This document shows positions 13,426-41,021 of a stretch of DNA of 64,000 bases, piece by piece. The number at the start of each line of letters is the position of its first letter. The stretch's first letter is position 1. This DNA is from Thalia democratica (taxonomy: Eukaryota), in contig OZ241833.1 in assembly GCA_965202585.1 (NCBI GenBank), positions 24,242,001-24,306,000 of the forward strand, read 5' to 3'. The notes beneath the pieces were generated by a model, which saw only the letters and a list, made by a program, of their open reading frames with translations, ran no database searches and was not told the DNA's origin. The position numbers and the translations under genes were made by a program.

Positions 13426-15918
13426 CTAATCTTCATGTTCTTTGTCTGAAAAGTTTTTATTTTCTATGCTGTCTCTCGTAATATCAATTACACAATCTTC
13501 AATATTCGTTTTGACGGGAGTGACCACGATTTCATTCAAGGTCACGACGCTGTCCGACGAAGCAAAACTAACTCGGTTGTGATTTGGCACTTTTTCATTT
13601 ATCTTCACTCTGCTCTGTTTCGGCGCGAAACATTTGGACGTCTGCCCTCTCTCAAGCTGCTCCCTGAGCTCTCTCAGCGCCACGATGCCGACCAGACGAC
13701 CCAGTTTCGTCACGAACACGTGATGCAGGCTCAGTAAGGAGAAGAGGGAGTGGACCTTGCGCAAGGTGGCCGTTCTGACAATGGTGAACGGCGACTCGTC
13801 AACTGGACACGTGGAAAAGTCTACCATCTCCTCGTGGATTTGAGAAAAGTTGGTGTTTTGTTTTGATGTCTCCGGGTGTTCAAAGTTGTTGTTGTCAGTT
13901 TGCAGCTGACTTACATTGGATAGACTGGTCGTGAACCTGCCGACTTTTCGTTCCTGCAAAACACTCGCAGAGTTATTATCACTTTGTTCTTCTTTCGCAC
14001 TTTCAAAACTGCTCATCAAGTCGTTCAAATCCTCCCTTGCGATCGAGCCGACCAAAACCATGTCGGCTTTGTTCTCGACCAAGGGGTAGCAGAAAAAATC
14101 GTGCTTGAGCAAACTCTTCAGCTCCCTGTACGTCGTTTCCGTCCTCGAAACGGACTTGACGTCATGCACCATGAACTGCTCGACCGTGACGCTGCTTAAG
14201 TACTTGTCGCTCCTCTTCAACTTGGGCAGGTACGGCAGCTCCTTGATCTTAATGATGCTCTCGTAGACGCTCGGCGAAATGAGACGGGCCACGGCGTTCG
14301 AGGCCAGCACCGCCAGCATGACGGGCAGCATGTGCAGCAACTGGCCGGTGACTTCAAAGGCGATGACCGCCGTGGAGATGGTGTGCGTCACCGCACCGCT
14401 GAAGCTGGCCGCCCCGACCACCGCGTACGCTCCCGGCATGACCCGGTGCGCGATCCCGCTCGATTCGTCGACGAAGTCTTGGGGCATCAGAAAAGCGGTG
14501 GTTTCCCCGACCAGGCGGCCGAACGCGGCGCCCAAGAGGAAGACGGGCATGAAGCAGCCGGAGGGCACGGCCAGGATGATGGAGCCGGCCGTCATCAGGA
14601 AGTGGACGACGCAGAAGAGGGAAAGAGTGAAGAAGACGCTCTTTTCGGGGTGGAAGAATCCGTTGTTGAGGAAAGGGGACGTCGCGTTGACGTCGGTGGC
14701 GTTCATGGAAAACCAGGTTCTGTTGTCGAAGAGCTGGGAAAGTGCCTGCTTCATTGTGAAGTCGCTGGCGATGTACTGGCCAATGTGAAACGGGTACGTG
14801 ATTAGCATGGTGGAAACCACGAACAGGATCGGGTATACAACAAAGTTCAGGCTCAGTAACTTTCTGATGATCTTTTTGTTTCTTATCAAGTTGACCAAAA
14901 ACTTATGGTACATGACAAACAAGGATCCGAGAAGACCGCACAGCACTCCAATTACTATCATTATACCAATTTCTTTCAAATCAAACGGAAAGTCGAGCCT
15001 GAAGTTGGTGTTTATGAGCGCGGTGATGGTATTTTCCTTCTTTGTGATAACCGCAAAGACCCTGAAAATAAACGCGCTGCATGTGGCGCAGAAAAACCCG
15101 CGCCAGTAGTCTCTGAGGGCGAAATGCGCCGAAATGACCTCGATGCTGAAGAGGACGCCACCTACCGGCGCAGCGAACGTGCAGGCCACCCCGACCGCGC
15201 ACGCTGCCGACAGGACGTGCACGTTCTTTGATTGGTCTTCGTAGGGGAAGGCGGCGAGCTTGTAGAAGCGGTCGTTGAGGAGGGTGGCCACGATGCTGGA
15301 TATGTGGACGAACGGGCCCTCCTTGCCGATGGGCAGCTTGGACCCGATGGCTGTCACGAGACCGACCACCTTTGCGATCAGCACTTTGAAGCTCAGGTAG
15401 TCGTACAGGTACACGCCGCGGAGGATTGTTTTTATTTCGGGTATTCCCGAGCCGATTGCTTGCGGCGAGACCAGGCTGACGAACTTGGCGCTGAATAAGA
15501 TTAACAGTAAGGGCAGACCGACCCAAACAGATACTGAAAGGAGTTTGTGGTGCAAGCAGTTTAAAAACAGCCAGTTTTGTGCTACGTGGATTGCAGTGAT
15601 GCAATAATCCAGAGCGAAGCTTAAAATTGCCATTAAAAGCCCCAAAATGAACAAAAACAACCACTCAGAAACCATGGAATACATAAAACAGTATTTCAAA
15701 GAAGTTATAGCTTTACTTATTAATCCTCCATCTTCAAGCGTAGTTTTTTGAACTGAAGGTCTGTCCTCCTTTTTGAAACTTGACATTCGTTTGTAAGCTT
15801 TCTTTGCAGCTTCGCTCAAATCTTTTTTGTGCTTGCCATACATCACCGTCTGCTCATACTCCATGCACTTGGCGCTTATTGACAGCGACCTCTGCCTGCT
15901 TTCTTGAAACTCAGCCAT
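13426..15918 (-). CDS. CLCN2: CLC chloride channel, ClC-2/ClC-a-like (channel type), 830 aa, single coding exon
   Basis: Motifs GSGIPE, GKEGP (gating Glu), GGVLFSIEV (Val at the proton-glutamate position, i.e. channel type) and GCFMP, with multiple TM helices and two CBS-like segments. A 3' splice site (...CCAAACAG, AG at 15925-15924) lies 5 nt before the ATG, so an upstream exon probably exists. Confidence 0.93.
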   Translation of the reverse strand: MAEFQESRQRSLSISAKCMEYEQTVMYGKHKKDLSEAAKKAYKRMSSFKKEDRPSVQKTTLEDGGLISKAITSLKYCFMYSMVSEWLFLFILGLLMAILSFALDYCITAIHVAQNWLFLNCLHHKLLSVSVWVGLPLLLILFSAKFVSLVSPQAIGSGIPEIKTILRGVYLYDYLSFKVLIAKVVGLVTAIGSKLPIGKEGPFVHISSIVATLLNDRFYKLAAFPYEDQSKNVHVLSAACAVGVACTFAAPVGGVLFSIEVISAHFALRDYWRGFFCATCSAFIFRVFAVITKKENTITALINTNFRLDFPFDLKEIGIMIVIGVLCGLLGSLFVMYHKFLVNLIRNKKIIRKLLSLNFVVYPILFVVSTMLITYPFHIGQYIASDFTMKQALSQLFDNRTWFSMNATDVNATSPFLNNGFFHPEKSVFFTLSLFCVVHFLMTAGSIILAVPSGCFMPVFLLGAAFGRLVGETTAFLMPQDFVDESSGIAHRVMPGAYAVVGAASFSGAVTHTISTAVIAFEVTGQLLHMLPVMLAVLASNAVARLISPSVYESIIKIKELPYLPKLKRSDKYLSSVTVEQFMVHDVKSVSRTETTYRELKSLLKHDFFCYPLVENKADMVLVGSIAREDLNDLMSSFESAKEEQSDNNSASVLQERKVGRFTTSLSNVSQLQTDNNNFEHPETSKQNTNFSQIHEEMVDFSTCPVDESPFTIVRTATLRKVHSLFSLLSLHHVFVTKLGRLVGIVALRELREQLERGQTSKCFAPKQSRVKINEKVPNHNRVSFASSDSVVTLNEIVVTPVKTNIEDCVIDITRDSIENKNFSDKEHED

Positions 15919-18314: not shown

Positions 18315-18318
18315 GTGT
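18315..18318. repeat. Target-site duplication GTGT (left)
   Basis: Matches 41018-41021 immediately outside the other LTR. Confidence 0.85.
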
Positions 18319-19111
18319 TATAACCACTGACCGATGGCTCGGTCGTAGTTAGGTTAGGTAATTGCTTATTATTGCTTTTCGCCTTAGTTTGCGACCGCGT
18401 CATGCGTTTTATGTCGTCCATCGATAAGCGTTTGGACGACATGAAATCTTAGTTAAAATATATATATATAATATTAAAACGTTCTAATATATATTCTAAT
18501 ATATATTCTAATATAATTATAAAACGTTCTAATGGAACGATCAATAACTTTAATGTATTGAGCTTATTTATAATCTAGTATCTAGAAAACAACTTTAAGT
18601 GAATGGTGAATTTATATACATTTAAAAACAAAACACGACAATGTGATAAAGTAACGTGATGAAGTTCTACCACAACTGACTCGAGGTTTTCTTAAGCTTA
18701 GTGACTGTACGCTGGTTACAATTTACAAAACTCAAGCAATTCTACTATCCTTTGCAGAGCTTCTATTCCCTTTGCCCAATCCGTCAACAACAACACAACA
18801 ACCCAAAACATCCTTTTAACACACTAAGGAAAACTTATTTATTTTTTTTACTCTCTTCTCTACTTACTACGTCACGCACAAGTCTTTCTGTAATTTTCCA
18901 CTTAAAACTTTGACTCCTTTGATGTAAATTCCACTTAACTTATCTTTGACTCCTTCATTGTACTTCTCGAAACAAGTAGTAAACTACTACTTGTTATACT
19001 ACCCTTCCTACCTTACTTAATTGATTTGTTTTTATCTTCTGAGTGCTAAAATATTTGAAGTTATTTTCTCGTTCTAGCTTTTGAAACAAGTAGAAGCTAC
19101 TACTTGTTATA
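18319..19111 (-). repeat. 3' LTR (793 bp), ends TATAAC...GTTATA
   Basis: Identical by eye to 40225-41017 and abutted by the PPT on its inner side. Confidence 0.95.
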
Positions 19112-19123
19112 CTACCCTTCCCT
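19112..19123 (-). promoter_or_regulatory. Polypurine tract
   Basis: The minus strand reads AGGGAAGGGTAG immediately before the 3' LTR start TATAAC. Confidence 0.85.
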
Positions 19124-19680: not shown

Positions 19681-19858
19681 ACACAGCTTCTCGTTGATAG
19701 GAACCTTCCGTTGCTGGAAAAGGAAATCTCTCGGACAAGGGGTTCGTTCTTCTGGGGGAAACTCGTAAAACACAGCTTCTCGTTGATAGGAACCTCCCGT
19801 TGCTGGAAAAGGAAATCTCTCGGACAAGGGGTTCGTTCTTCTGGGGAAAACTCGTAAA
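19681..19858. repeat. 89-bp tandem duplication in the 3' untranslated part of the element
   Basis: ACACAGCTTCTCGTTGATAGG...CTCGTAAA occurs at 19681 and 19770 with few mismatches. Confidence 0.9.
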
Positions 19859-19918: not shown

Positions 19919-21997
19919 CTACATCGAACTCGGTTTGTCTTGTCCGAAAAACTCTGGTGTATTTAAATTTGTCTCATTTACACAAGGGAACCAATGCGAC
20001 AAATGATCTTCGTTTTTAAACGTTTCTTCTATTTCCGGAAAAGTTTTAGCTTCTTTAGAAACCGATTTCAAGGCCGTTCCCACCTGGAGGCAGTTCGAGA
20101 TTCCGTGCGACTGTTCCATAATCTCGGCTGTCCCATCTCTTTCATCTCCATTTTTCCAAATCTTTGATAATAACCCTCCGTCATTTGCTACTTTCTCTTT
20201 TTCTTTTTTTATAGATGACTTCGAGATTCCGTGCGACTGTTCCATGATCTCGGCTGTCCCATCTCTTTCATCTCCACTTTTCCAAATCTTTGATAATAAC
20301 CCTCCGTCATTTGCTACTTTCTCTTTTTCATTTTTTAAAGATGACTTTTGTTTTTTATTCAATTTTTTACTGTCTGTCTCAATCTCTTCCTTTCCTGTGT
20401 CTCTATATTTCATCTTGATATTTGGTTTATCCTCGGACGCAGTTCTTTTCACGACATTGATATCAATATCTCCACATTGAATAGAAAACAGGTGGTGTAT
20501 ATTTGTTTTTGCTTTGCAAAATCTCTCGAGTCCATCTTGAATGGTCAAGCAACTCATTTTTTCATCTTCTATATTTTTCAGTTTGAGCTCTTTAACTTGT
20601 TGTTTCCATTTGACTATTTCTTTACTATGTTTTTCTTCATGCTCTTTGTTTGCCTGTTTGAGTTCCTTTAACTCTTTCAAGAGATTTGTTATTCTTAGTT
20701 TTTTAGTTCTTAGTTTTTCTTGGATGTTTTCCTTTTTTCTCTTTTGCTTATTTAATCTTTCTTGTAATATTTCAATGGTATTGTTGGCATTAAGTATTTT
20801 GTCACAAAGCTCAGTTCCTTCCTTTCTATAATTTATTTCGTCCTGCCTTAAGTCATTTATAACTTCACTTTTTTTTCTAAGTTCGGCTTTTAACCTTTCT
20901 ACTTCAGTTCCCAAAAATTCCATTGCCCCTTTCACGCTAGAATCATTAAATGATTGTACAGCTTTCTTTATGAGTACTTCTTGTAAAAGTTCCACTAACT
21001 CATTTTCTTGGAGAGTTTCTTCCTCTTCATGTGTAACGTTTGAAAGATTTTTTTCATCCTCAATTACCATAACTTTTGTTGCATCCTTTTCTTTAATAAC
21101 CTCTTTTTGTTTGACCATTTTCTTGACATTTTTTTGGTCGTAGGCAAGGTGAGACTCTTTAGAATTTTTAACAAAACTTCCCACATCTTCGAGGTTGTTA
21201 GATCTTTCCTTTGCAACTTCCATTTCACTTAAAGTGTGCTTTTTTAGCTTAGTTGATGATTCATTTTCCACTCCTTCAGATATCTCCGTCTCTTGCATTT
21301 GAACTTTGCTATTTTCTTTTCGTTTCTCCTCCGTCGTATGTAAAATTTTTACACCAGATTGAGTTCGTACCTTTTGTGGTTTTGTTTCTTGAATCGTACC
21401 ATCTTCTTTTTGCTTTTTGTTAGTTGTCTGGGCTGCCTCTTCGCTAGTTGGCGTTCGTGCTCTTTTCGTTGGCATAGTAACCTGCTTCCCACTATTTCCT
21501 TTTTGTATGTTATTTGTCGAGGAAAATGTCCTATCTCCTGATTGCGTTTCTACTTTTCTTGATCTCGTAGCGCTGATATTTATTTTCATATTACTCTCCT
21601 GAATATTTTTTGATGTTGTCCATGACCCTTCATTAGATTGCCATCGTCTCGATGGCATTGTATTCCTACTCACATTCCTAGTTGGTTCGTATCTTGATTT
21701 GTTGAGTCTCATATCTTCTTCTCTTCTTGGCTGGTTATTTCTTAATGGATAGTTTGATCGTCTATAATATGAGGACCTGGAAGGTGGCGTTCTTCTATTA
21801 TCCCAGCGATAATGACTATTTGTTCGACGTATAATTCTTCTGTTTTCCGTTCTACCGTCATATCTTCTATCTTCAGAATCATATTTGTCTCTTCTGTGAT
21901 CACAATTTTTGTTTCCATCGATTTCTGTTAAACTATCAGTTTCGCTTGCCAACAAAGACACAGCGTCTTCGGATTTGTTCGTGCTGTTACAACTCAT
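19919..21997 (-). CDS. Orphan 692-aa accessory protein of the retroelement (R/S-rich N-terminus, central coiled coil, 2x42-aa C-terminal repeat)
   Basis: 2.08-kb open frame in very AT-rich DNA. It has a K/E-rich heptad region at about aa 360-480, an in-frame 126-bp duplication (20101/20227), and an AAAAATG start with a splice acceptor 20 nt upstream. Confidence 0.85.
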   Translation of the reverse strand: MSCNSTNKSEDAVSLLASETDSLTEIDGNKNCDHRRDKYDSEDRRYDGRTENRRIIRRTNSHYRWDNRRTPPSRSSYYRRSNYPLRNNQPRREEDMRLNKSRYEPTRNVSRNTMPSRRWQSNEGSWTTSKNIQESNMKINISATRSRKVETQSGDRTFSSTNNIQKGNSGKQVTMPTKRARTPTSEEAAQTTNKKQKEDGTIQETKPQKVRTQSGVKILHTTEEKRKENSKVQMQETEISEGVENESSTKLKKHTLSEMEVAKERSNNLEDVGSFVKNSKESHLAYDQKNVKKMVKQKEVIKEKDATKVMVIEDEKNLSNVTHEEEETLQENELVELLQEVLIKKAVQSFNDSSVKGAMEFLGTEVERLKAELRKKSEVINDLRQDEINYRKEGTELCDKILNANNTIEILQERLNKQKRKKENIQEKLRTKKLRITNLLKELKELKQANKEHEEKHSKEIVKWKQQVKELKLKNIEDEKMSCLTIQDGLERFCKAKTNIHHLFSIQCGDIDINVVKRTASEDKPNIKMKYRDTGKEEIETDSKKLNKKQKSSLKNEKEKVANDGGLLSKIWKSGDERDGTAEIMEQSHGISKSSIKKEKEKVANDGGLLSKIWKNGDERDGTAEIMEQSHGISNCLQVGTALKSVSKEAKTFPEIEETFKNEDHLSHWFPCVNETNLNTPEFFGQDKPSSM

Positions 21998-22017: not shown

Positions 22018-22179
22018 CTGTTAAGAAGAATAATTGTTATCCAAACGTTATTATATGTATATTTTATTTATTTATTTATTATTTTTATATTTTTATATTT
22101 TTTAACCAACTCATGTTTTATTTTTTTATTTTTGGATAAATATTATTTTCAGTAAATTTTATAGGTTCATATTACTTAC
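22018..22179 (-). other. Putative 162-bp intron upstream of the 692-aa ORF
   Basis: GTAAGT donor (22179-22174), TTATTCTTCTTAACAG acceptor (AG at 22019-22018) and an extremely AT-rich interior. Confidence 0.55.
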
Positions 22180-22193
22180 TTTACTCTATTGTT

Positions 22194-22400
22194 TCAATGC
22201 ATTCTCAATTTAAGTATACTGTGGCTCTGTTTTTTTTTTTTTTTTTTTTTTTTTTTGAAAGTGATGTGATGAAGAAATAATGTGTTTAATATTATAATAA
22301 TTATCCCTGACCTTGTTGCTAATGAAGGAAAAAGGAAAAACAAAAAAAAAAATAATAAAACCAATATATACATGATCAGTAACGGCCACCTATTTCTCAT
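22194..22400 (-). CDS. Possible small hydrophobic ORF (68 aa) overlapping the env stop codon (ATGA)
   Basis: ATG overlaps the env TGA. A hydrophobic stretch is followed by poly-Lys that derives from an A27 run, so it may be compositional. Confidence 0.2.
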   Translation of the reverse strand: MRNRWPLLIMYILVLLFFFLFFLFPSLATRSGIIIIILNTLFLHHITFKKKKKKKKKQSHSILKLRMH

Positions 22401-24112: not shown

Positions 24113-24209
24113 TATACTATCTACCTTCCAGCTTAAATTTTCTTATTTATAACCAAAACGAGAGAGGTGGAGAGAAAAAAAATAGTTCGCCAAAAATTTT
24201 TTTTTTTTT

Positions 24210-24252
<43 letters not shown>

Positions 24253-24464
24253 CCAATCATCTTAGTATTGAGAGCGGAAAAATAACAACATCAAAAATAA
24301 AATTAATAATAAGCAAGTAACTTTAACTTCCACATTAATTACACTTCATATGATACACGGTAATTTTGTGTGACAATTTCAAGTGCTCGAGTTTAAAGTG
24401 ACATGGTTATGGAATTTCTCAAAAAGAATCATTTATCTGATATATACAAAATTAATACGATGGC

Positions 24465-24788
24465 TTAATTGGTCTCTCCCACCATTCCAAAATACGGTTG
24501 GTTATAAATGATGAAATACCTTAATTTCATCTCCAAATTGAATAGTGAAATATCCTGAAAACTTATCATGTGAGTAATTCCTACAAAACCTATTGCGTAC
24601 GAGCATTTCTCACTTACTTCGTTTTCAAAAAGGAAATTAAAATGGGTGCAGAAATTTTTTATCATATTACTGTTTGAACATTCATATAAATGAAAATTTT
24701 TATGTAAGAATTCTTTAAAGTTCTCATTCGAATTTATATAATTATAGAAGTCTTCTCCATATACGGGGTTAATCATAAGTAAGAACAT
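24465..24788 (-). CDS. Possible 107-aa accessory ORF upstream of env
   Basis: Same strand as the other element ORFs, with 3 Cys and non-repetitive sequence. It is short and has no recognisable motif. Confidence 0.35.
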   Translation of the reverse strand: MFLLMINPVYGEDFYNYINSNENFKEFLHKNFHLYECSNSNMIKNFCTHFNFLFENEVSEKCSYAIGFVGITHMISFQDISLFNLEMKLRYFIIYNQPYFGMVGETN

Positions 24789-24874
24789 TACAATTTTATC
24801 TAAAATAGTTATAATTTTTAGGGTGATTACTAATCAATATGCCTACAATAAATTTTACTTTGCTAAATTAGCTC

Positions 24875-27800
24875 AATTAAATTGAAGATGTAAAAATAAA
24901 AAAATAAAAAATTAGTGAGGGATGGAATAAAAATATGGCTAAAAAAAATACAAAACAAAACATATTCTGAGGTAAAACTACTTAATTAATTCAGTAATTC
25001 ATAAAAAAACTATAAACTTGTGTTTCGTAATTATAAATATAGACAATCATATTTAAACATACATTTTTATTATTAATTATATCTGCTTATTTGCTATTTA
25101 AATCTAAAAAAAAAATAACAGATATTATGATATTGAAATTCAATATTATTTAAAGTTAAGTAATTAGAAAAATTACATAAAAAAAACAAAAAACTTATAA
25201 CAAAACCTAAATATTGTTTTTTCAATTTTGTAATAAACTTGATATCCGTTTTTCCATGACCCTTTCAACTTCGACGTTTTTTTTTCTGACAGATGTCTCG
25301 TGGAATTGTCAAGCAAAAAGGTATATTCTTGTCTTCATCATGGACGTTTGAATTTAAAAGCAAAGTTTCTTTCGTAGAAACATCATCATAAAAAAATATT
25401 TCATTTGGAGTATCTTTTTCCAAATATTTTCGAGCAGTTTAGCTCGGAATGTTTTCATAGTTCAACTATCTTTATAAAATAATAAATATTTTTATTTCTA
25501 TTTAAGAAGTTTAATTAATTTCTATTTAGGTGAGTTCCCTCTCAACTTATTCATCCCCACATATCTTCCATATCAACTTATTCGTCTCCACACATATTCC
25601 ATATTAACTTTTTCGTCTCCACACTTCTTCCATATCAACTTATTCGTCTCCACACATATTCCATATCAACTTATTCGTCTCCACACATATTCCATATCAA
25701 CTTATTCGTCTCCACACTTCTTCCATATCAACTTATTCGTCCCCACACATATTCCATATTAACTTATTCGTCTCCACACATATTCCATATCAACTTATTC
25801 GTCCCCACACATATTCCATATCAACTTATTCGTCCCCACACAACGACTATCTTTCAGTTAATATTACTGGAGCTGATTACCCTTCCAAACTTAAAAAAAA
25901 AATTTTACCTCACATAAAATGATAAATATTTCTGAGTTCAGCCAACGAAGTTCGTTTAAAATATTGACAAATTGATAAGTTTCACTATGTAGTGTCACGG
26001 GAATAGAATTGCGTCCTCCAGACTACTAACTTTTAGTTTTTTATTTGTTTAAAGTTTATTTATTAAATGTTTTTTTTTTTTTTTTTATGTTTAACATAAT
26101 GTCATGATTTGACAACTTTAAAACACTTGATTTGCGGTTATTCTACTGGCTTAAAAAAAACTATATTTATATTATTTTTATGATATACGATGCACTAAGA
26201 TTAATATAATTAAGTGAATACTTAAATTCACTGTTAACATGCCATGCGAGGTTGTTTACGAGTTAAGTAGTTAAACTAGCAATTAAAAAAAAAAAAAAAA
26301 AAAAAAAAAGACCAGAACTTTGCGCTTTTAAAAAAAAAACAAAATTTCTTCATCATAAATGAATAACATCAACAATATATATATACAAGAAAAAAAAAAT
26401 AAGATAAATTAATATGAAAAACTACAACAGGCAGACTATACATATAGTAACTATAAATCATAATATATTTCTAAGCATGACATATTGAGAATAAACTTAA
26501 TAAGTAATTTGTAGTTTAAGACAATGAAATTTCTACATCGATGCTCAAACCCATAAAATGCCTTATGCATAATATCAACATTACTGTTACCTAAACAAAT
26601 CACAACCGCTTGTGAAGCTATAATCAAAAGTTTATATACCTATTTTTTATACACTTTTTAAGCAAACATTAGTGGAATTTTTTTAGACATTAAGTAAGAT
26701 TGTTAAAAAATAGATAAAGCTACTCAAACTTTATATTTTTTTATAATTCATTTTAATAAACTTAATTAATAAGTTATTAAAGCAAAATATTTATTATATT
26801 ATTTAGATAATTTAATGAAAATAATTAAATGATAATAGTTTTTTTAATCTAAATTCACAGAAATATGTTTGATAGTTATTGTATCATTATAGCAATCAAT
26901 AGTTAAATATTAAATGTATTAATTAACTTTTTACTAAATTATCATTATAACTTTATCAATAGATAATAATCACTTTAAGTTATCAAAATAGCTTTAACCC
27001 TACAGAGAAAACTAATTATTAAACTAGAAGTTTGCCGTACAATGTGACGTAATATATCAACAAATTGAGTTAAGTATTTCTTTTAAAATTATGTTACAAG
27101 AGACTAATAAGACAATTAGTTAATAAAATTAAGTGTTTTGGTAAGAAAAACTTCATAGTACTTTTAGGTTCTGTTTTGTTATCGATTTAAAGTCAAACGC
27201 CATACTAAATAAATTAAAGCCAGATGTTATGAAAATTTAACAATTGTTATTTACTCCTAACGTTTTAGATTTTATCGATAAGAAAATAAAATCCGAGTGA
27301 AATTTAAATTGATAAGAAAGTTTAACTTTTACGACAGTAACTATAAAAAATTATCAGATGCTTGTAAAACGAAAATAGCAAGTTTTATTTTGTTATTGTT
27401 TGAAAAATTTATTTTTAACAATTTTTTATGTGAAAATTTACAAAAACTGTCAATCATTATTCCTATTTGTTTATGATTAAAGTACATTTTTACTGCTGTA
27501 ACTTTATCTTAAAAAAATTCGATTTTTTATACGACGGGAATTTTATCACAAACAGGTGCGGTTAAATAATTTAAACTCCTTCCGTTGTGTTAACAATCTT
27601 TAAAACATTGTTAAAAAAGATTTAAAGTTAGGCTATAAGATCGTATTGTAATAATTTAAAGTTTGAAAATAAATATTCTTAAAGTTATTAAGTATTGTAT
27701 AGTTATTATACACAAATTGTAATTAGAATATACTAAAACATTCTAAACTTCTTATATTTTTAATGAAAATCACACTAACAAAAATAATAGCGACATAATT

Positions 27801-27918
27801 ATACACATGACATAGTTAAATAGTTAAATGTAAACAACAAAACTTTTTTATTTTTTTTTATTAAATAATATTTGCAACTTTTTTATGTTTTTTTTATCTT
27901 TTAATTTTATATTTTTCT
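24875..27918. repeat. Internal duplicated module, copy 1
   Basis: Blocks 24875-25240, 25845-26030, 26095-26425 and 27367-27918 recur in the same order at 28340-28760, 30048-30215, 31070-31674 and 31675-32226. Confidence 0.85.
25543..25841. repeat. 31-bp tandem array A (~10 copies)
   Basis: Unit approximately CAACTTATTCGTCTCCACACATATTCCATAT. Confidence 0.92.
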
Positions 27919-28339
27919 AAATTTAGTCTCTTACCTTACCTCTCTATTTTGTCTTCATTTTAAGATTTTTGTTTTTAATTCTATTTCTGTCTAGTATCAG
28001 TTTCTATCAATATTTTTATACTTAAGATTGTTATATCAACATTACCTTTTAATGTATCAATAATCATTTACGTCTATCATTCAGTACCTGTACCCACAAA
28101 CTCCTTCCGAAACCATTGGTAGAATAAAAAAAGATAAAAGATAAAAAAACAAGTAAATAGAAAAAAAATTGTACATAAGTTAATTATTTAACAAGAATAT
28201 GGTATTTTTAATTACATGTGTATATACTTTTCTTAATTAAAAATAATTAATTAAGTCAGTAATTCATAGTTTAAACAAAATTATAATTTTGAAATTAAAA
28301 AACTGTAAATTGTTGTTGGTGCTTAAAATATAAAATTTA

Positions 28340-31300
28340 ATTGAAATGTTAATAAAAAGTTAGTGAGTAATGGATTAAAAACACGGCAAAAAATTACAAA
28401 CCATAACAAAACATTTTCTAAAGTAAAACTAATTAATTGATTCAGTAATTCATAATTTGTAAGAATTAAGTTTGGTGTTACAAAAACTATAAACATAGAC
28501 AATCATTGTTTAACATACATATTACAATTAATTTTTTTATTTGCCTGTTTGCAGAGCAGGAGTTATGTAAGTAAAAGTGTATGTAGAATTAAAAGTCTTA
28601 TTTTAAGCTAATTAAATCTTAAAAAAACTGATGTTTATGTTACTTTAAAAATTGAATGTTATTTAAAGTTAAGTAATTAAAAAAATTACATAAAAAAACT
28701 TATAACAAAACCTAAATATTGTTTTTTTTTTTCATTTTTTTGATGCAATAAACTCAATGTAAGTTTTTTTTTTGTGAACTCCTCGTCAACTTCTTCGTCT
28801 CCACCCATCATCTTCCATATCAACTTATTCGTCTCCACACATCATCTTCCATGTCAACTTATTCGTCTCAACACGTCTTCCATATCATCTTATTCGTCTC
28901 CACACATCTTCCATGTCAACTTATTCGTCTCCACACATCTTCCATATCAACTTATTCGTCTCCACACATCTTCCATGTCAACTTATTCGTCTCCACACAT
29001 CTTCCATGTCAACTTATTCGTCTCCACACATCTTCCATGTCAACTTATTCGTCTCCACACATCTTCCATATCAACTTATTCGTCTCCACACATCTTCCAT
29101 GTCAACTTATTCGTCTCCACACATCTTCCAATCAACTTATTCGTCTCCACACATCTTCCATGTCAACTTATTCGTCTCCACACATCTTCCATATCAACTT
29201 ATTCGTCTCCACACATCTTCCATGTCAACTTATTCGTCTCCACACATCTTCCATATCAACTTATTTGTCTCCACACATCTTCCATGTCAACTTATTCGTC
29301 TCCACACATCTTCCATGTCAACTTATTCGTCTCCACACATCTTCCATGTCAACTTATTCGTCTCCACACATCTTCCATATCAACTTATTCGTCTCCACAC
29401 ATCTTCCATATCAACTTATTCGTCTCCACACATCTTCCATGTCAACATATTCGTCTCCACACATCTTCCATATCAACTTATTCGTCTCCACACATATTCC
29501 ATGTCAACTTATTCGTCACCACACATCTTCCATGTCAACTTATTCGTCTCCACACATCTTCCATATCAACTTATTTGTCTCCACACATCTTCCATGTCAA
29601 CTTCTTTGTCTCCACACATCATCTTCCATATCAACTTATTCGTCTCCACACATCTTCCATGTCAACTTCTTTGTCTCCACACATCATCTTCCATCTCAAC
29701 TTCTTCTTTTTTGATTTATTTTGATTTTCAGTTAATTTAGTTTGTTGCTTGAGCCGTTTTCTTCGTGATTCTTGAACTTAAATATCTTTAATCACTCATA
29801 TTTTTAAAATATCTTTATTAGAACTTGTTCTGACTTATAACAATGATAATGAATTATTCTTAGTATATATTTATAAAAAGGGTTATTTCATTTCTTTTAA
29901 ATAAAATACTGTTAAGAAATTTAAAAATAAAATTGAACTTTAGCAGACAGCAGGCTATATCATTAAACATAAGTTTAAATTTCTATATACAAGTTGTGCT
30001 TCTTAAAAAGTTACTTTTTTTGTGTTAGTATTTAGACATAAGTAGCTCGACTATCTTTCAGTTAATATTACTGGAGATGTTTACCCTTCCAAACTTTAAA
30101 AAAAATATTTTCCTCATATAAAATAATAAATATTTCTGAGTTCAGCCAACGAAGTTCGTATAAAATATTGATAAATTGAGAAGTTTCATTGTGTAGTGTC
30201 ACGGGAATAGAATGCGTGTTCGTTCAACGACTTTTATGTTATGGCACAGGATTGATAACTACGTAACTTTGACGTGAACATTTCGTTTTCTTTGTTTGGT
30301 GACACTGGAGTAGTAGGTGATTTCTGATCACAAAATTAATAATGTGTATCCCACAATTACTGAATAAAATAAAATTAATGAAAAACTCTCGCAATAACAA
30401 GTTAAATATTAAAAATGCTGCTGACCCTAAAATTTGCATGTCTTTTATGCGAAAAGAAAGTACACTTATTATAGTTTTGAACAAAGTATTTTCGATCTCC
30501 AGACTTTTTTAAAAACGGTATTAGAATAGCACTCATCTTTGGTCGTTTAATAACTTATAGTTTGTTATTTGTTTAAAGTTTAACTTATTCAATAATTTTT
30601 GTGAAAACAAGCCTGCTGCTGATAAATGGCTGATTTTGAAATAATAGTACCAAAAAGTATATTATTTTACCTGATTATATTTGAAAAATTATACACACAA
30701 TTGCTTGTCATAAAACGTTAAGTTTTTTATTTGAAAATAAGAGTTTTTAAAGTTAGGAATTCAAAATAATATAGTTTCTAACTTATTACTACTAAATTAC
30801 TTGACAAATTACTACTTTTAAAACACTTCTGTATGTTTTATTAACTAATAATTAATTATCTTTTATGAGCCTTAGCACTTGAAGTTAAATTTTTTTTTTT
30901 ATAATTAAAGTTATATAAGACTGAATGTAGATTACAATCTTAAACTATTTATGTTTCATTAGTTGAATATTTGCAATGTTTTAGAATAAGTTCACTTATA
31001 ATTTGATATAGTAACAATGAAATAGAGTAACTCGGATGTTAATTTACTGTTATAATATATCATATTTAACTTAATGTCATGACTTGACAACTTTTATACA
31101 CTTGATTTGTGGTTATTCTACTGGCTTAAAAAAAAACTATTTTTATATTATTTATATGATATACAATGCATTAAGATTAATATAATTAAATAAATACTGA
31201 AACTTTTTTATTTTTTATAGTTTTATTATATTTACTTACAAATACATTTTTTAATGTAGAAAGTGTGTTTGCCGTTCGTAAGTTAATTTTTGTAATATAA

Positions 31301-32226
31301 AACATTTTTAAAGACAAAAGCAGGTAATGCTTTAACCTAAACAATCAAAAGTTTTAGGAATCATTACATACTTATAAATTCTCTAAAGGAAAACTTTTAA
31401 ACGTAATTATATAATTGAACTTGATTGACATTGACTTTGAAAACAAAGATTTATGATTCATTTTTGCCATTTTACGAGCATTTAGAGAAGCTGAAAATTC
31501 ACTGTTAAGATGCCATGCGAAGTTGCTTACGAGTTAAGTAGTTAAACTATCAATTTAAATAGGACCAGAATTTTGCGCTTTTTTAAAAACCAAAATTTCT
31601 ATATTATAAAACCAAATAATATCAACAATATATATACAAGAAAAAAAAAAAAAATAAATTAATATGAAAACTACAAACGAAAATAGCAAGTTTTATTTTG
31701 TTATTGTTTGAAAAATTTATTTTTAACAATTTTTTATGTGAAAATTTACAAAAACTGTCAATCATTATTCCTATTTGTTTATGATTAAAGTACATTTTTA
31801 CTGCTGTAACTTTATCTTAAAAAAATTCGATTTTTTATACGACGGGAATTTTATCACAAACAGGTGCGGTTAAATAATTTAAACTCCTTCCGTTGTGTTA
31901 ACAATCTTTAAAACATTGTTAAAAAAGATTTAAAGTTAGGCTATAAGATCGTATTGTAATAATTTAAAGTTTGAAAATAAATATTCTTAAAGTTATTAAG
32001 TATTGTATAGTTATTATACACAAATTGTAATTAGAATATACTAAAACATTCTAAACTTCTTATATTTTTAATGAAAATCACACTAACAAAAATAATAGCG
32101 ACATAATTATACACATGACATAGTTAAATAGTTAAATGTAAACAACAAAACTTTTTTATTTTTTTTTATTAAATAATATTTGCAACTTTTTTATGTTTTT
32201 TTTATCTTTTAATTTTATATTTTTCT
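28340..32226. repeat. Internal duplicated module, copy 2
   Basis: Diverged copy of 24875-27918 with insertions (e.g. about 31200-31495) and a deletion of about 940 bp. Block 31675-32226 is identical by eye to 27367-27918. Confidence 0.85.
28787..29703. repeat. 31-bp tandem array B (~29 copies)
   Basis: Unit CAACTTATTCGTCTCCACACATCTTCCAT(G/A)T; period 31 (e.g. 28921 and 28952), with a few 34-bp and shorter units. Confidence 0.95.
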
Positions 32227-33128
32227 TATTTATTCTTTATTTTACCAACTAAACAATTGAAAATAAAATAACTTAAAATTTAGTATATTGAGTAACAAAA
32301 AACATTTAAATGTTTTGATTATTTTGAACAAAATGAATCTAATAAATATTAGTTTGCACTTAAGCAAAATCGAAGTTACCTAACTATACATTATGTCAAA
32401 ATTATATAAAAAATCATTTTATAAATATTATCACTTTTCTGTTTAATTATTATCATCTCTAATATCTCGTATCAATATTTTATAGTTACGGTGTTAAACA
32501 TAACAACACATCAAAAAATAAAAAAAATTCCTATTTTTAAGAATTGAAGTCTATATTGATAACAATAATTATTGAGTGAAGTCATAACTGTTAATATTAT
32601 TCGTAAAGTAATTTGTTTTAAAACGCAGGATAACGTTAGATGTGTCTAAATGTGTTTCTAATAATGTTCCTCTATTTTTTTAAATGAAAGTATTCAATTT
32701 TAATTAACCCACATACTACAATAACATATAAGCTTAAACTTTGGATAATAAATTATAATTTAAGCAATCATATATTTGTTTAATAATATAAAATTTCAAC
32801 ATCTCTACTTATTGTTTATTTAATTATAATACCAAGTAGTAATAATAAAAAATATATAAAAAAAAAATTATCTAAATAATGAAAAAATAAAATAGTTACT
32901 ATCAGTTTAATTGATTTCTTCCGAATGAGCTGAATTATGTAGAAACAAGATTTCTTCAAAACTGGTCTAAAAGTTATTCCTATTCGTCTGCATCGTGACC
33001 TTCCTTTCATATTCCCTCACGCGCAGAATCAATAAGTATCCTAGATGTTGTCCTGCTTCCTGTCGATCGCTTAAATTTTCCTAAATGTTTCATAATCGAC
33101 TATTTAACACTATTTCCCGCTAAGTCTA

Positions 33129-33372
33129 CTGTGGCTCTGCATAATTTTTAGTTTCCATGTTCTAACTTAGGTCCAACGATAAGAAAAAGTAATGTATTTG
33201 ACCTTTCCCAATTTCTAGAATAGATTTTCTAAAAATAGTGTTAAGCTCTGCTGTGGCTCTGCATAATTTTTAGTTTCCATGTTCACTTAGGTCCAACGAT
33301 AAGAAAAGTAATGTATTTGACCTCTCCCAATTTCTAGAATAGATTTTCTAAAAATAGTGTAAAGCTCTGCTG
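33129..33372. repeat. 122-bp tandem duplication, with a third partial copy at about 33440-33487
   Basis: CTGTGGCTCTGCATAATTTTTAGTTTCCATG... occurs at 33129 and 33251. Confidence 0.88.
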
Positions 33373-35200
33373 ACCATTTTCTATACTTCATAAAGCTTCA
33401 TATGGCCAACAAACAAATACTTAAAAAATGTTTATCCACCAAAATTTTGTTTTCCATGTTCTCCTTTTAGGCCCAACGATAAGAAAGGATAAAAGTTAAT
33501 ATAAAAGTAAAAACTACTGCCTTATTGAAGTATGAAACTGACGTGTTGTAAAACAACGCGTACTTTATTAATTGATTATTATTCGCAACTCAAGAATTTA
33601 AATTATGGTACTATAATTTATCATAGATTAAAACAATTTTAAAATCATTAATAATTAAGTTAACATAAGTAGTGAGATTTCCTTACAAATATGTAATAAT
33701 ATAAAAAAAAAATAATATAATAATATTTAACTCTTAACTATTATAATACATATTTAACAAAACACAAAAAAAATCTCAGTATGCTACATATAATTCTAAT
33801 GTAACTAAAAAAAATTTTGAAGTCTGAGCTTTCCTTTCAGTTGATTTTTTTTATAAATGTTTCTTGAAAAGCAGATATATATGATCACAACAAAAGAAAA
33901 AAATCTTAAATATCTTCTATCAAAATTGTAACTACTTGATAAAAATTTAATTATCTTCAGTTTCTTGTTCAATTGAATTCCCCTGACTCCTATACTTGAA
34001 ATAATTCAATTTTGAATAAGTTGAAAAGTTTAACTTAATAAAAGCACTCAAGTTTTCTTAGCTTCTTAAATGATCCAAGTGCTGGCAAAATAAATTTATG
34101 CCACAACTTTTTAAATATTTTAATTTAAAAAGTTTTGTGTAAACATTTTCATTAATCTAACAATTTCTAATTTTAAGTATCGCGTTTTTTTTTTTTTTTT
34201 TTTTTTTATTATTTTTTATTTATCTAAATAGTTACAAATATTAATCAATTATTCGCCGACAAGCTAAAAATTTATACTAAATAATATCAGCTGGGAATAT
34301 TATTACAAAATAAAACAAAATAAAAACATTTATTTTTCAAAATCCTACAAAAAATTTAAAAAATTTGTTTCACTAATTATATTCCCATGTTAATTAAATG
34401 TCACAATTTCGAATACAAATCCTTTGTGTATAACATCGCATATTAAAAAATTAAAATATTCGTTTGCACTTATTAACAAAATTTATTTAAAAACAAATTT
34501 TTATTCAAAAGCTAATTTTTATTCTCATGCTTTACTAATTTCTATTGACAAAAAGTTTCATATTATATTACAAAGTTGTTAAATGAATGCTATAGCATCT
34601 TATGCATTTATATAATATGTTAAATAAAATCTGAAACAATATTTATTTACTCACCCATCGATACTTTATACTCGTAACATCGATACAAGATTTATAAATA
34701 CTGTTAATACATAATATAATACATTATTCTAAAATTAATAGTTTATAATATTAATTATTCAAAAATTTTTTATAAGTTTTATGATTTTTGGAAATTTTTG
34801 GAAATTTTTATTATTTTTTATATTTTTTATTTTTATTTTATTTTTATTTTATTTTTATTTTATTTTTATTTTATTTTTATTAAAATTTTTTTATTATTAT
34901 ATTATGGACAAAATAAAAAGAATTAATTACATGCAATAAGATGAAAAAGTAACACAACAAGTTGATTACCATCGCTTGTTTAAGCTTAAACAGGCCTTAC
35001 TAAATTAACACAAAAAAAAAAATCTTAATAAATAAGTATTTCGCACCCAATTGCTTATTGTAACGAATCACACAGCTATGCTTTAATATTAAAACTATTT
35101 TTATATATCATGCTAACTAAAACAATATTGTACGAATAAAATATTTTGAACATGTCAATCTGATTAATGTTAATTCCTACTCTCAATTCAAAACTTACTT

Positions 35201-38200: not shown

Positions 38201-40348
38201 AAATGTGGCTTTTTTTAAAAGCATATTTCCAATGCTGAGATCCACATCTACACTCCCTATTGGATAAATGGTTGAGTTTCCCAAACCCTTTATTGTTTTA
38301 CTTTTTGGCTGGAAATATTGATTTATTCCATTAGTTAACATTTTCGGTAAGATAGACACTTCACTACCTGAATCGATTAATAACAAGACTCCCGATTTTT
38401 TTTCCAGTGCGAATAGGAGGTTTTTAGGAAGATTTTTTATATCGGTTGTTTCTGTTTTATTTTCTAAAACTGAGCATTGTTTAACCGGAACATTACTTTT
38501 GTCCAAAACCAATTCGTTTATCTTTTTCAAAATATTTTCTAGATTGTTGTTTATTTGATCTGTATTTCCCGAACATGTAGGCATTGTACTTTCATGAATA
38601 TCATTCTCTTTCGTTCCTTTCATGCTTACAGTTAATGAGCTCTTTTGATTTACAAAACTATTTTCTGTGTTATCCACTGGTATTGCTTTGTAACTGCAGT
38701 TTTTATTATCTTCGTCGTATAACTTAGTTTCCTTGTCCTTTGTTAAGTCTGTTTGCATAACAGCAACGTTGCAACTTTTCTGTTGTTGGTGATTCGCAAT
38801 TAGATGATTCATCTTACAATCTTTCCTATTGCAAGAGTAAGCCTCTTTTCCGTATCGCCAATGTTGATAGCATAAGTCACCCTGGTTTGTAAACGGATTT
38901 TGTTTTGCACTAGTTTGTTGGTAGTTCCAATTATTGTTATTGTTTTTATTGTGTGAGTAAAAATCTGGAATTTGATGATTTCGATACGGTCTAAAATTTC
39001 CGTTGTTGTTATTGTTGTAATTAAAATTATTGTTTTTATGTCCGATATTTCGATTGTTATACCTTCTAGGATTTGTACTATAAATTTGATTAGTTCGTGG
39101 CGTTCTATCATAATTTACCGGATTGGAAGGTATATTTTCCTCTTGACAATTCCAAATACCTTGTGTCCTTCTCTTGAAGATATCATAGTTTTCATTAAAG
39201 TTTTCTCTGATTTTTGTTTTCAATGAAAGTGGACTTAAGTAGTAGCAGAAAAATTTTATGCGGTCAACTTTGCTGCTTTCTGCGAATTTAGTTGCATCTG
39301 CGAGGAATACACCAAACGGGGTAGAAGCATCATATTGTGGTACTTTACTGAGAATATCGCTCAGAGAGTCGTCCCTATTAACACAAAAATCACAGAATGA
39401 TTCGAAGTTTCGATGTTCCCTGTCCACTAATCTATAAAAATTCGAAACATCCTCAGTTGGCCATTTTTCGATAAGTATGTTATACTTCACGTAATCATCA
39501 CGTATGTTAAGTCGATGAAATTCTTCCTGGAAATACCCCAATACATCTCTAGGATTTTTTACTTTCTCTATTCTGTTGAATTTTTTTATTAATCTGTCCA
39601 TTTCCATATATTTTCCATATACTGTATGGTTTGAGTTAATATTATCAAAATTTCTATTATAAATATTTTGGTTCTGCATATAATCTTCGTCGCAAAAGTT
39701 GTTTTTATTTGCATACATGTTATTACTGATGTGATGCGTCATGTTATTATCTGTATGTATAAAGTTTTGACTTGTGATCAGATTTTCCAGTTTATTATTA
39801 TTTTCACAAATTTTCTCCCTTATTTTACGAATTTCTTCTTCCGCCTGTTGTCTTCTAAGGTTTTCTTCGCTTATCTTAAGTAATTTATTCATTTCTTCTA
39901 TTTGTATTTCATAGTCTGTTTTCTTAATAATGTTTAAATTATCCTGGGTCGAAATATTATTCTGTTGAAAAAAATTTTTTTGATCATTTTCTAACTTCGT
40001 CGAAGGTATTTTATCCATTTCTGTTTTTTTATTTGCCTGTATAATTCGATCATTAAATAAAGTTCTAGCTTCGTCATAAGTAGGTGTATTGACCTGAAAA
40101 GTTAATCCTTCTGTATCAGTTTTTTTACCTTCTTCGCCCTTATTTTCAACATTTCTATCATTCGGTCCGCTATTCGCTGTTTCATCGAAAGGTGGTACAT
40201 CTGTGCTTGTAGGGAGGACGCCATTATAACCACTGACCGATGGCTCGGTCGTAGTTAGGTTAGGTAATTGCTTATTATTGCTTTTCGCCTTAGTTTGCGA
40301 CCGCGTCATGCGTTTTATGTCGTCCATCGATAAGCGTTTGGACGACAT
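35201..40348 (-). CDS. gag-pol: Gag-Pol polyprotein (Gag with CHCC knuckle, aspartic protease, RT, RNase H, integrase), 1715 aa, single frame
   Basis: CYQHWRYGKEAYSCNRKDC; LLIDSGS; RICIDY...LPRI...LDLKEAY...FGLMNAP...YLDD; SDAS...KELRA...RTDS; H..HLG...WW...C..C; VDL/TDNG/VER catalytic triad; HGPY. The PR-RT-RH-IN order is Ty3/Gypsy. Confidence 0.97.
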   Translation of the reverse strand: MSSKRLSMDDIKRMTRSQTKAKSNNKQLPNLTTTEPSVSGYNGVLPTSTDVPPFDETANSGPNDRNVENKGEEGKKTDTEGLTFQVNTPTYDEARTLFNDRIIQANKKTEMDKIPSTKLENDQKNFFQQNNISTQDNLNIIKKTDYEIQIEEMNKLLKISEENLRRQQAEEEIRKIREKICENNNKLENLITSQNFIHTDNNMTHHISNNMYANKNNFCDEDYMQNQNIYNRNFDNINSNHTVYGKYMEMDRLIKKFNRIEKVKNPRDVLGYFQEEFHRLNIRDDYVKYNILIEKWPTEDVSNFYRLVDREHRNFESFCDFCVNRDDSLSDILSKVPQYDASTPFGVFLADATKFAESSKVDRIKFFCYYLSPLSLKTKIRENFNENYDIFKRRTQGIWNCQEENIPSNPVNYDRTPRTNQIYSTNPRRYNNRNIGHKNNNFNYNNNNNGNFRPYRNHQIPDFYSHNKNNNNNWNYQQTSAKQNPFTNQGDLCYQHWRYGKEAYSCNRKDCKMNHLIANHQQQKSCNVAVMQTDLTKDKETKLYDEDNKNCSYKAIPVDNTENSFVNQKSSLTVSMKGTKENDIHESTMPTCSGNTDQINNNLENILKKINELVLDKSNVPVKQCSVLENKTETTDIKNLPKNLLFALEKKSGVLLLIDSGSEVSILPKMLTNGINQYFQPKSKTIKGLGNSTIYPIGSVDVDLSIGNMLLKKATFWVTKESGDYGIIGLDILKANKLIISPHTSEILEYNLNRKARLYTAGELTTAAEGPCKKLKITSYQEKSDDKNNIKSILEEFKELTMEPDYNKPVKHGHSLEIKVNNLVPRMIKARKCNGMRRKIVEENFNDLIIRGAMSRGQEAIYVSPITMVPKKDGNIRICIDYTTLNAHTNPISYPLPRIDELPEFIPNGSKIFSCLDLKEAYYSLPIHPNSQKYAAIIAHHGVFIPHRTTFGLMNAPMRFQMMMEDILTPCTGFVYVYLDDILVFSESKKDHELHLRKVLQTLQDSGLYLNAKKCIIAESKVDFLGHSIGADGIGVMDSKVEAIINLPRPTNRKELKRFIGLVNYYYHHIPRLSEIIAPLNELSGGPKATNKKPLKLNQFQINAYKDTLKVLAKAATLAYEDHNKPLILYSDASETHVGAVLEQEGIDGNKRPLAFFSKKLPSLKRYRSTFYKELRALYLSLKHFQSRIIGRELIIRTDSQSVEKAITNPIKDQSPMEQRYIAAIKEFNPFIKHIAGADNIVADILSRPPHSTSMHIALQDNDPDYVHNSNTDLSCSDTDDDLTENEEELITAASLNKLEIAQLQKNEPLLLKKAKELKKEIKYVGSEDLAVIQEGDNQRIILPSILRLTAFELAHGYLHLGVERSIIATAKDYWWPTLKTDIKYWCKSCAECQATKTFRHNRPKIGLYPKNTERFQFIHVDLIGPMNVISDDNKYIMTIKDRGTGFLVTTPLPNKKAQTVKNALIQSWCGIFGVPQVIVTDNGCEFNNSLLKEVFQQLGIDHRYVPPYSPESNGFVERQHRSINVALRTLVDKEKWSMLLPLITTSINNSFVEGNLFTPSQLALGTCTNISGRIFFNKVSNNHKEIDTYETNFFLHTMSNAYRKHKCYTEKHTYYEPGLFDCEKVWIRKKNKSHLSAQYHGPYPILSYSDHSMIIEKNGKPIKVSLRNVKGYFPREELDAEGNKLGPTAAYNLRERNIELNYADIDTTTYDESD
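40211..40223 (-). promoter_or_regulatory. Primer binding site (TGGCGTCCTCCCT), 1 nt inside the 5' LTR end and within the gag frame
   Basis: TGG (complement of tRNA CCA) directly follows the LTR end GTTATA plus one A. It predicts a primer ending ...GGAGGACG-CCA; tRNA identity (possibly Asn) is not verified. Confidence 0.75.
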
Positions 40349-41017
40349 GAAATCTTAGTTAAAATATATATATATAATATTAAAACGTTCTAATATATAT
40401 TCTAATATATATTCTAATATAATTATAAAACGTTCTAATGGAACGATCAATAACTTTAATGTATTGAGCTTATTTATAATCTAGTATCTAGAAAACAACT
40501 TTAAGTGAATGGTGAATTTATATACATTTAAAAACAAAACACGACAATGTGATAAAGTAACGTGATGAAGTTCTACCACAACTGACTCGAGGTTTTCTTA
40601 AGCTTAGTGACTGTACGCTGGTTACAATTTACAAAACTCAAGCAATTCTACTATCCTTTGCAGAGCTTCTATTCCCTTTGCCCAATCCGTCAACAACAAC
40701 ACAACAACCCAAAACATCCTTTTAACACACTAAGGAAAACTTATTTATTTTTTTTACTCTCTTCTCTACTTACTACGTCACGCACAAGTCTTTCTGTAAT
40801 TTTCCACTTAAAACTTTGACTCCTTTGATGTAAATTCCACTTAACTTATCTTTGACTCCTTCATTGTACTTCTCGAAACAAGTAGTAAACTACTACTTGT
40901 TATACTACCCTTCCTACCTTACTTAATTGATTTGTTTTTATCTTCTGAGTGCTAAAATATTTGAAGTTATTTTCTCGTTCTAGCTTTTGAAACAAGTAGA
41001 AGCTACTACTTGTTATA
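40225..41017 (-). repeat. 5' LTR (793 bp); contains a candidate TATA box (TTATAAATAAG, 40479-40469) and the gag ATG
   Basis: Identical by eye to 18319-19111 and abutted by the PBS on its inner side. Confidence 0.95.
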
Positions 41018-41021
41018 GTGT
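41018..41021. repeat. Target-site duplication GTGT (right)
   Basis: Matches 18315-18318. Confidence 0.85.

Follow-up and report, generated by a model that had tools for sequence, protein, structure and literature searches.

Env-carrying Gypsy elements of invertebrates are usually treated as three-gene elements (gag-pol-env). Complex retroviruses carry 3' accessory genes in addition, among them HTLV pX Tax/Rex, foamy virus Tas/Bet, HIV Nef, and walleye Orf-A/B. Extra open reading frames (ORFs) in LTR elements, including ORFs downstream of env, are already known, and gene capture at that position has been acknowledged in a review; extra ORFs include ORF3 of bdelloids, which is of a coiled-coil type (PMC5408684), the plant aORFs and Ogre, sORF1/sORF2 of MDG1 (PMC11952523), and Burro (PMC6431247). 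Cer1 of C. elegans produces CERV from a spliced RNA, and passages of that study describe CERV as needed for export of the genomic RNA (PMC10309623). Passages on Oikopleura Tor, a Gypsy-like element of a marine animal, attribute expression of its env to an internal promoter or to splicing (PMC4402516). The gB-type errantiviruses, as described in their survey (Chary and Hayashi, PMC13524379), combine the Ty3/Gypsy PR-RT-RH-IN domain order with gag-pol-env genes, a class III env, and recent multicopy insertion in invertebrate genomes.

The window analyzed here, a stretch of 64,000 nucleotides from Thalia democratica, contains a Gypsy LTR retrotransposon (18319-41017, 22.7 kb, minus-strand genes) that shares these traits of the gB-type errantiviruses (Table 1). 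Its gene order is gag-pol, about 11 kb of mostly non-coding DNA, env, a 399-nt spacer that follows the env stop, the post-env ORF, about 800 nt, and the 3' LTR. The domain order of pol, the paired LTRs, the target-site duplication, and the polypurine tract place the element in Ty3/Gypsy; a stretch starting TGG, a candidate primer-binding site, follows the 5' LTR. The identical LTRs, with their flanking 4-bp duplication, indicate that the insertion is recent. It differs from the gB-type errantiviruses of PMC13524379 in its large fourth gene 3' of env, in a gap of several kb to 11 kb between pol and env, and in its length of 18-23 kb. The first filter of that survey admitted regions of at most 10 kb with pol-env gaps of at most 0.5-1 kb, later extended by 3-5 kb, and because of these limits it would probably miss this element.

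Table 1. Features of the element and its post-env ORF in the window.
Feature	Position	Strand	Remarks
Target-site duplication, 4 bp	18315-18318 and 41018-41021		flanks both LTRs
5' LTR	40225..41017	-	793 bp, 100% identical to 3' LTR
gag-pol, 1715 aa	35201..40348	-	domain order PR-RT-RH-IN (Pfam)
pol-env region, 11 kb, largely non-coding	24113..35200	-	31-bp tandem arrays and internal duplication
env, 571 aa	22397..24112	-	class III (gB-like) fusogen; N-terminal signal-like and C-terminal membrane helices
A27 tract in env-ORF spacer	22230..22256	-	
Splice-acceptor-like block	22018..22046	-	pyrimidine tract ending ACAG, 20 nt before ATG
Post-env accessory ORF, 692 aa	21997..19919	-	uninterrupted from ATG to TAG
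N-terminal acidic-hydrophobic motif, residues 10-23	21929..21970	-	common to the sister family B post-env ORF
Arg/Tyr-rich disordered block, residues 31-125	21623..21907	-	candidate RNA-binding arm
SUMO-interaction-like (SIM-like) motif, residues 309-315	21053..21073	-	putative; a run of four hydrophobic residues followed by acidic ones
Coiled coil, residues 359 to ~480	20558..20923	-	14 regular heptads
Tandem duplication, 126 nt (42 aa)	20094..20345	-	1-3 units across copies
C-terminal tail, residues 635-692	19922..20095	-	weak purifying signal
Polypurine tract	~19112-19123	-	precedes 3' LTR
3' LTR	18319..19111	-	793 bp

The gag-pol start codon lies inside the 5' LTR, and the first gag codons are therefore repeated in each 3' LTR; the gag start apparently falls within the LTR in every family examined (in family A, to which the window copy belongs, at window 40225-40348 and 18319-18442, and also in families B-H). 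Other full-length family A copies are about 18 kb long, counted from the outer end of one LTR to that of the other, and the distance from RT to env is 12.5 kb in the window copy versus about 8 kb in three other copies. The window copy is about 4 kb longer than its siblings because of 31-bp tandem arrays (25411-25958 and 28692-29706) and an internal duplication spaced by about 4.3 kb (27367-27940 and 31675-32246). A 107-aa ORF upstream of env (24468-24788, minus strand), open in all three other copies checked, shows 9 synonymous and 11 non-synonymous codon differences and is possibly an exon or a chance frame.

By its modeled structure, env is a class III fusogen located 3' of pol, as in a gB-type errantivirus. 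A Foldseek search with the model returned 197 viral matches at E <= 0.001, headed by gB and rhabdo/chu-like glycoproteins, and structural comparison with HSV-1 gB gave Z 9.7 and rmsd 7.5 with 220 aligned; the match to Pfam Glycoprotein_B (E 0.0047) lies below the cut-off of that family. The env profile had no match among PDB sequences, and no env locus emerged when metagenome and viral contigs were scanned with it. Env relatives from outside this genome, in related species, are 56-64% identical (P0004, 64%).

The intact large ORF that the first-pass annotation had noted behind env is confirmed, and we add that it is on the minus strand. Of the Arg/Ser/Tyr-rich N-terminus described there, the Arg (25%) and Tyr (7%) enrichment of residues 31-125 stands, and the Ser content, at 12%, hardly exceeds the 10% of the following linker. 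In agreement with the probable disorder proposed for this arm, pLDDT is below 50 across nearly all of residues 1-256 in an AlphaFold model made from the single sequence. The same model contains a single helix at 355-500 (pLDDT 91-97 over about 371-470), and the heptads counted from residue 359 (n=14) carry a hydrophobic residue 10 times at position a, 9 times at d, and at most twice at any other position, with K+E at 37%, all as expected of the roughly 120-aa K/E coiled coil noted earlier. The in-frame 42-aa duplication was also correctly called recent: its two 126-nt units differ at 4 nt, and the number of units is polymorphic (one in 12 of 26 aligned copies, two in 13, three in 1).

Searching the genome (802 Mb) with the ORF, by a method that works exon by exon, gave 87 matches, with 64 of 125 candidates scored. 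Of 36 loci fetched, 25 were near-complete and entered an alignment with the window copy, giving 26 copies; we set aside nine partial or very diverged loci (L022, L028, L031-L037) and two near-duplicates (L071, L073). The order env-spacer-ORF is kept in all 25 near-complete copies; a further family A copy, L085, has lost both env and the ORF. A frame broken in most copies, with dN/dS near 1, had been named in advance as a sign against a functional gene, and at face value this nearly applies: the frame is open in 11 of the 26 copies and broken in 15, and pairwise dN/dS against the window copy is 0.63-1.32. Counting broken copies is too crude a measure, since 13 of these 26 copies also have a broken env (it is open in the other 13).

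Accordingly, we separated private from shared changes, the former having arisen mostly after insertion and the latter having passed through active elements; the count used 25 rows (L026 was dropped as the sister of a dead copy) and scored stops on whole codons. Stops shared by at least two copies number 1 versus 10.5 expected (P 0.0003), and none is shared by at least three versus 7.0 expected (P 0.0009); four indels of more than 1 nt are shared, and each of them preserves the frame. Residues 1-125 have a shared dN/dS of 0.42 and 0.34 (changes in at least two and at least three copies; p 0.005 and 0.003) versus 1.44-1.49 for private changes, with values of 0.25-0.30 in residues 1-30 and 0.40-0.48 in residues 31-125. 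In the same order, the ratios are 1.06 and 0.74 for residues 126-330, 1.08 and 1.10 for 331-500, 1.12 and 1.62 for 501-634, and 0.31 (p 0.033) and 0.35 (p 0.14) for the C-terminal tail; a single-region p of 0.02-0.06 is weak because seven sub-regions were tested. For the whole gene the shared ratio, 0.76 (p 0.09) and 0.72 (p 0.08), does not depart significantly from 1, versus 0.17 and 0.13 for env, and the ORF evolves much faster than env. Among the 19 youngest rows alone, an earlier count gave shared and private ratios for the ORF, 0.86 and 0.99, that do not differ. In the aligned copies, then, the reading frame and the N-terminal part are maintained by selection, and the middle of the gene drifts.

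An env search of the genome (76 of 262 candidates scored) led us to examine 22 loci outside family A. Family B, whose env is 50% identical to that of A and forms a clade with it on the env tree (support 99/99), carries a post-env ORF of 393-428 aa (3 loci, 4 ORFs) that combines a disordered N-terminal half with a coiled coil and a tail of variable repeats and is open in all four full-length occurrences. Between two intact copies this ORF has a dN/dS of 0.47 (p 2.5e-4), with 0.32 in the coiled coil and 0.15 in env. The A and B ORFs have no significant homology to each other (BLASTP best E 0.11; profile comparison probability 2%), and B lacks a comparably Arg-rich block; the 14-residue N-terminal motif that they share reaches a score attained by 34 and 10 of 5000 shuffles, for a segment chosen after the match had been seen. 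Families C (3/3 loci) and D (5/5) have an unrelated ORF of 79-120 aa that contains an RSRS stretch and ends in a hydrophobic tail (dN/dS 0.52-0.92, not significant), and in families E-H (11 loci) there is no comparable ORF between env and the LTR-borne gag start. Since the A/B and C/D ORFs are unrelated and E-H lack one, the post-env slot, judged from these sequences, was filled at least twice, or filled once and then replaced. Within a single genome, and against a resolved env tree, the slot is occupied by a large fourth gene in some families, by a small one in others, and by none in the rest, which offers a natural comparison for the origin of accessory genes. The small C/D ORFs were observed at L041-L046, L056, L057, and L082, the last of which is env-deleted and retains an intact ORF.

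Several features point to how these genes may be expressed. The acceptor-like block before the A ORF is present in 27 of 28 family A copies, and in nine older copies its 25-nt bin has an identity of 0.95 versus 0.33 and 0.50 in the two bins upstream; bins near the env stop are also highly identical (0.84-0.91). A similar site lies 33 nt before the ATG in all four family B ORFs. The pattern is not rare, occurring 18 times in the 22.7 kb of the element. Env and the small C/D ORFs are instead preceded by a T-tract and TATA-like sequences. Contigs of one marine metatranscriptome include four pieces of the ORF at depth 4-11 and no splice junction, from a library in which DNA is possible.

Searches for homologs returned only the family itself. 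Pfam assigned no family to the ORF; a word-index protein search gave two matches (90% and 81% identity) and none outside the family, and HMMER against 1.84 billion representative proteins gave eight, all pieces of the same family. The best ESM Atlas scores, 0.78 for the A ORF and 0.86 for the B ORF, are leads only. The structure search suggested in the first-pass annotation gave no fold match in the PDB, using a single-sequence model of low confidence outside the helix. Two viral Foldseek matches (E <= 0.001) were rejected as long-helix artifacts with a TM of about 0.1. Thus the description as an orphan accessory gene of the element is supported by its family-wide presence, its selected frame, its positional counterpart in a sister family, and the lack of any outside homolog in these searches; on the sequence evidence, it is a real and selected gene in an unusual four-gene, 18-23-kb errantivirus-like family.

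Compared with the 3' accessory genes of retroviruses, the ORF shares the position between env and the 3' LTR, probable splicing, and a disordered, motif-driven character, and differs in belonging to a Gypsy element rather than to vertebrate Retroviridae, in having no detected homology to them, and in being larger than most. Like the other extra ORFs of LTR elements cited above it is a family-specific orphan, and unlike them it has been added to an intact class III env and has sister families with two unrelated gene types in the same slot. The element resembles Tor in being an env-carrying Gypsy-like element of a marine animal with, here, a T-tract and TATA-like sequence before env, and differs in that the passages on Tor (PMC4402516) contain no post-env gene. 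CERV (PMC10309623) is likewise lineage-restricted and fast-diverging, with a coiled coil, basic stretches, and a spliced RNA, the last of these putative for the ORF described here. As described in that study, some exons of CERV are common to gag, and the protein contains a Cys loop and two folded domains, M and G. The post-env ORF starts at a separate ATG downstream of env, its single-sequence model, of low confidence, contains no globular domain, and no sequence or fold match to CERV was found. Membership in the CERV family by descent was rejected on the grounds of the separate ATG, the absence of any BLASTP match to gag-pol at E <= 1, and the same low-confidence model without a globular domain.

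For invertebrate Gypsy elements with a gB-type env, a large gene on the 3' side of env is a new form of these known additions; we found no report of one in literature that consisted mostly of journals open without subscription. In seven supplements of PMC13524379 no mention of an accessory or additional ORF or of ORF4 was found, and one mention of an "accessory ORF" in a longer version may bear on novelty.

As for function, we tentatively prefer, without regarding it as established or even probable, that the post-env ORF encodes a nuclear adaptor that helps in the production and export of long genomic RNA bearing splice sites. The protein would be translated from a spliced sub-genomic RNA, as the conserved acceptor-like site suggests, and would form a soluble coiled-coil oligomer with disordered arms, located in the nucleus. 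The Arg-rich block could bind the element's own long RNA, and the acidic-hydrophobic and SIM-like motifs could dock host nuclear partners; the length and heptads of the coiled coil would matter more than its sequence. The need for such a protein would arise from a genomic RNA of 18-23 kb that still carries splice sites, as for Rev/Rex and for CERV of Cer1. The motifs lean toward a nuclear regulatory role. One candidate leucine-rich NES-like match lies at 334-343, and basic NLS-like matches are present but uninformative in a Lys-rich protein. The position of the ORF, its presence across the family, the depletion of stops, the N-terminal constraint, the family B counterpart with its similar N-terminal motif, SIM-like motif, and acceptor-like site, the heptads, the absence of a membrane segment, the element-like GC3, and the precedent of CERV all favor the nuclear adaptor. 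Against it, families E-H and L085 do without the gene, which is thus not needed by every relative, and the linker, coiled coil, and repeat region have dN/dS of 0.74-1.62. The non-significant whole-gene ratio, the shared single-base frameshifts, the lack of significant homology between the A and B ORFs, the missing Arg-rich block in B, motif patterns written post hoc, and the commonness of the acceptor-like pattern also count against it.

Unlikely, in our view, is an anti-silencing role in which the protein is a multivalent SUMO-binding decoy acting against SIM-bearing repressors (SetDB1/Windei, Daxx) at element chromatin, with host conflict driving its rapid change. SIMs are loose motifs whose core of four hydrophobic residues is followed by acidic or Ser residues, according to passages of PMC12751080, and residues 309-315 fit this definition (hydrophobic four-residue core, acidic/Ser flank, disordered region) by a pattern written post hoc. 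At least three of the four hydrophobic positions and two acidic residues are kept in 26 of 26 family A copies; P0002 and one old copy carry the motif in degraded form. There are two such motifs in each of the A and B proteins (in A, with hydrophobic cores at residues 13-16 and 309-312) and none in six control proteins, again by a pattern written after the sequences had been seen. Passages on piRNA- and KAP1-guided silencing describe SUMO-SIM contacts in both (10.1101/533091, PMC10144533), and the much faster evolution of the ORF than of env would suit a host conflict. The consensus, however, is loose, no region has a dN/dS significantly above 1 or another sign of positive selection, and the best-constrained long block is the Arg-rich one, for which a decoy has no need. 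In family B the motif falls within an invariant run, which is also true of 36 out of 167 linker windows, and SUMO-attachment sites are no more frequent than in shuffled sequences. When residues 288-330 were modeled in complex with a divergent host SUMO-like protein, the score of 0.25 (mark 0.34, without controls) spoke neither for nor against binding. Divergent intronless SUMO-like genes occur at L097, L098, and L100, and the same search returned many ubiquitin-like match arrays. No retrotransposon protein that binds SUMO to counter silencing turned up in the literature, again mostly in journals open without subscription. If either RNA export or a block of SUMO silencing is correct, the gene would be a testable example of how the RNA of an 18-23-kb retroelement evades host surveillance.

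Equally unlikely is a role in the cytoplasm, where the protein would act as a scaffold for assembly or form condensates, packaging the long RNA or joining capsid to Env, in the manner of a matrix protein or of LINE-1 ORF1p. A disordered Arg/Tyr-rich arm joined to a long coiled coil would be suited to this, and ORF length is greatest in the family with the longest elements (A, 692 aa; B, about 400; C and D, 79-120; none in E-H). The matrix-like role proposed in the first-pass annotation gains no support here, since the ORF has no membrane segment (maximum 19-residue hydropathy 0.51 versus 2.68 for env), no signal peptide, and no N-myristoyl Gly-2. Neither a LINE-1 ORF1p-like RRM/CTD nor a capsid fold was matched in Pfam or by fold, in a model that is low-confidence outside the helix, and the env families that lack the gene keep multiple intact env copies.

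A broader and rather improbable proposal is that this lineage independently became a "complex retrovirus," with the post-env slot as a hot spot and the A/B gene as a multivalent SUMO- and RNA-binding counter-defense against SUMO-dependent silencing; if so, an animal retrotransposon would carry its own suppressor of nuclear silencing.

We consider it quite improbable that the ORF is a once-useful or near-neutral passenger, now drifting, whose frame survives mainly because the active copies are young. The whole-gene ratio of 0.72-0.76 is not significant and the middle of the gene is near 1; the nucleotide identity of old copies approaches that of the 3' UTR and LTR (in L023, 80% versus 80-84%). 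Three single-base frameshifts, each found in three copies, point the same way; they all fall in A runs, where repeated slippage or errors of assembly may account for them, and env has no shared indel. Drift is opposed by the depletion of shared stops (P <= 0.0009), the shared long indels that stay in frame, the constraint on the N-terminus, and the purifying selection on the family B counterpart. Very improbable, and already largely refuted, is a recently captured host or viral gene confined to the window copy, as the first-pass annotation had considered: uptake of host sequence is possible, as in the H2B-like fragment of a family B derivative, but the ORF is in all 25 near-complete copies aligned (from a genome search that scored 64 of 125 candidates, exon by exon), UTR, LTR, or env sequence of the element is also matched by three of the most diverged loci fetched, L022, L035, and L036 (a fourth, L037, is a fragment full of stops), all eight HMMER matches are pieces of the family, and its codon use is element-like, its GC3 of 0.31 matching that of gag-pol (0.31) and env (0.32) and not those of two host genes in the window (0.69 and 0.89).

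Other rearrangements were observed around the slot in the sister families. At L039:1101-3365 the 3' end of env and the family B ORF are tandemly duplicated, giving two intact, diverged ORFs in one element. Family B also has an extra ORF upstream of env, of 130 aa (L038:9362-9751) or, in an env-deleted copy, 240 aa (L078:4680-5399), with no Pfam match. The fragment in the family B derivative (L081:3272-3592), which we take to be histone H2B-like, takes the place of env and the extra ORF, with pol on one side and the LTR on the other. In env-deleted family D copies a 123-aa acidic ORF replaces env (L082:2848-3216, L083:2624-2992). In the window itself, host genes for a ClC chloride channel (13426-15918, minus strand) and a glutathione S-transferase (42498-43175, plus strand) are intronless in very AT-rich surroundings, and the 3' UTR of the element contains an 89-bp tandem duplication (19681-19858) with 1-3 units across copies.
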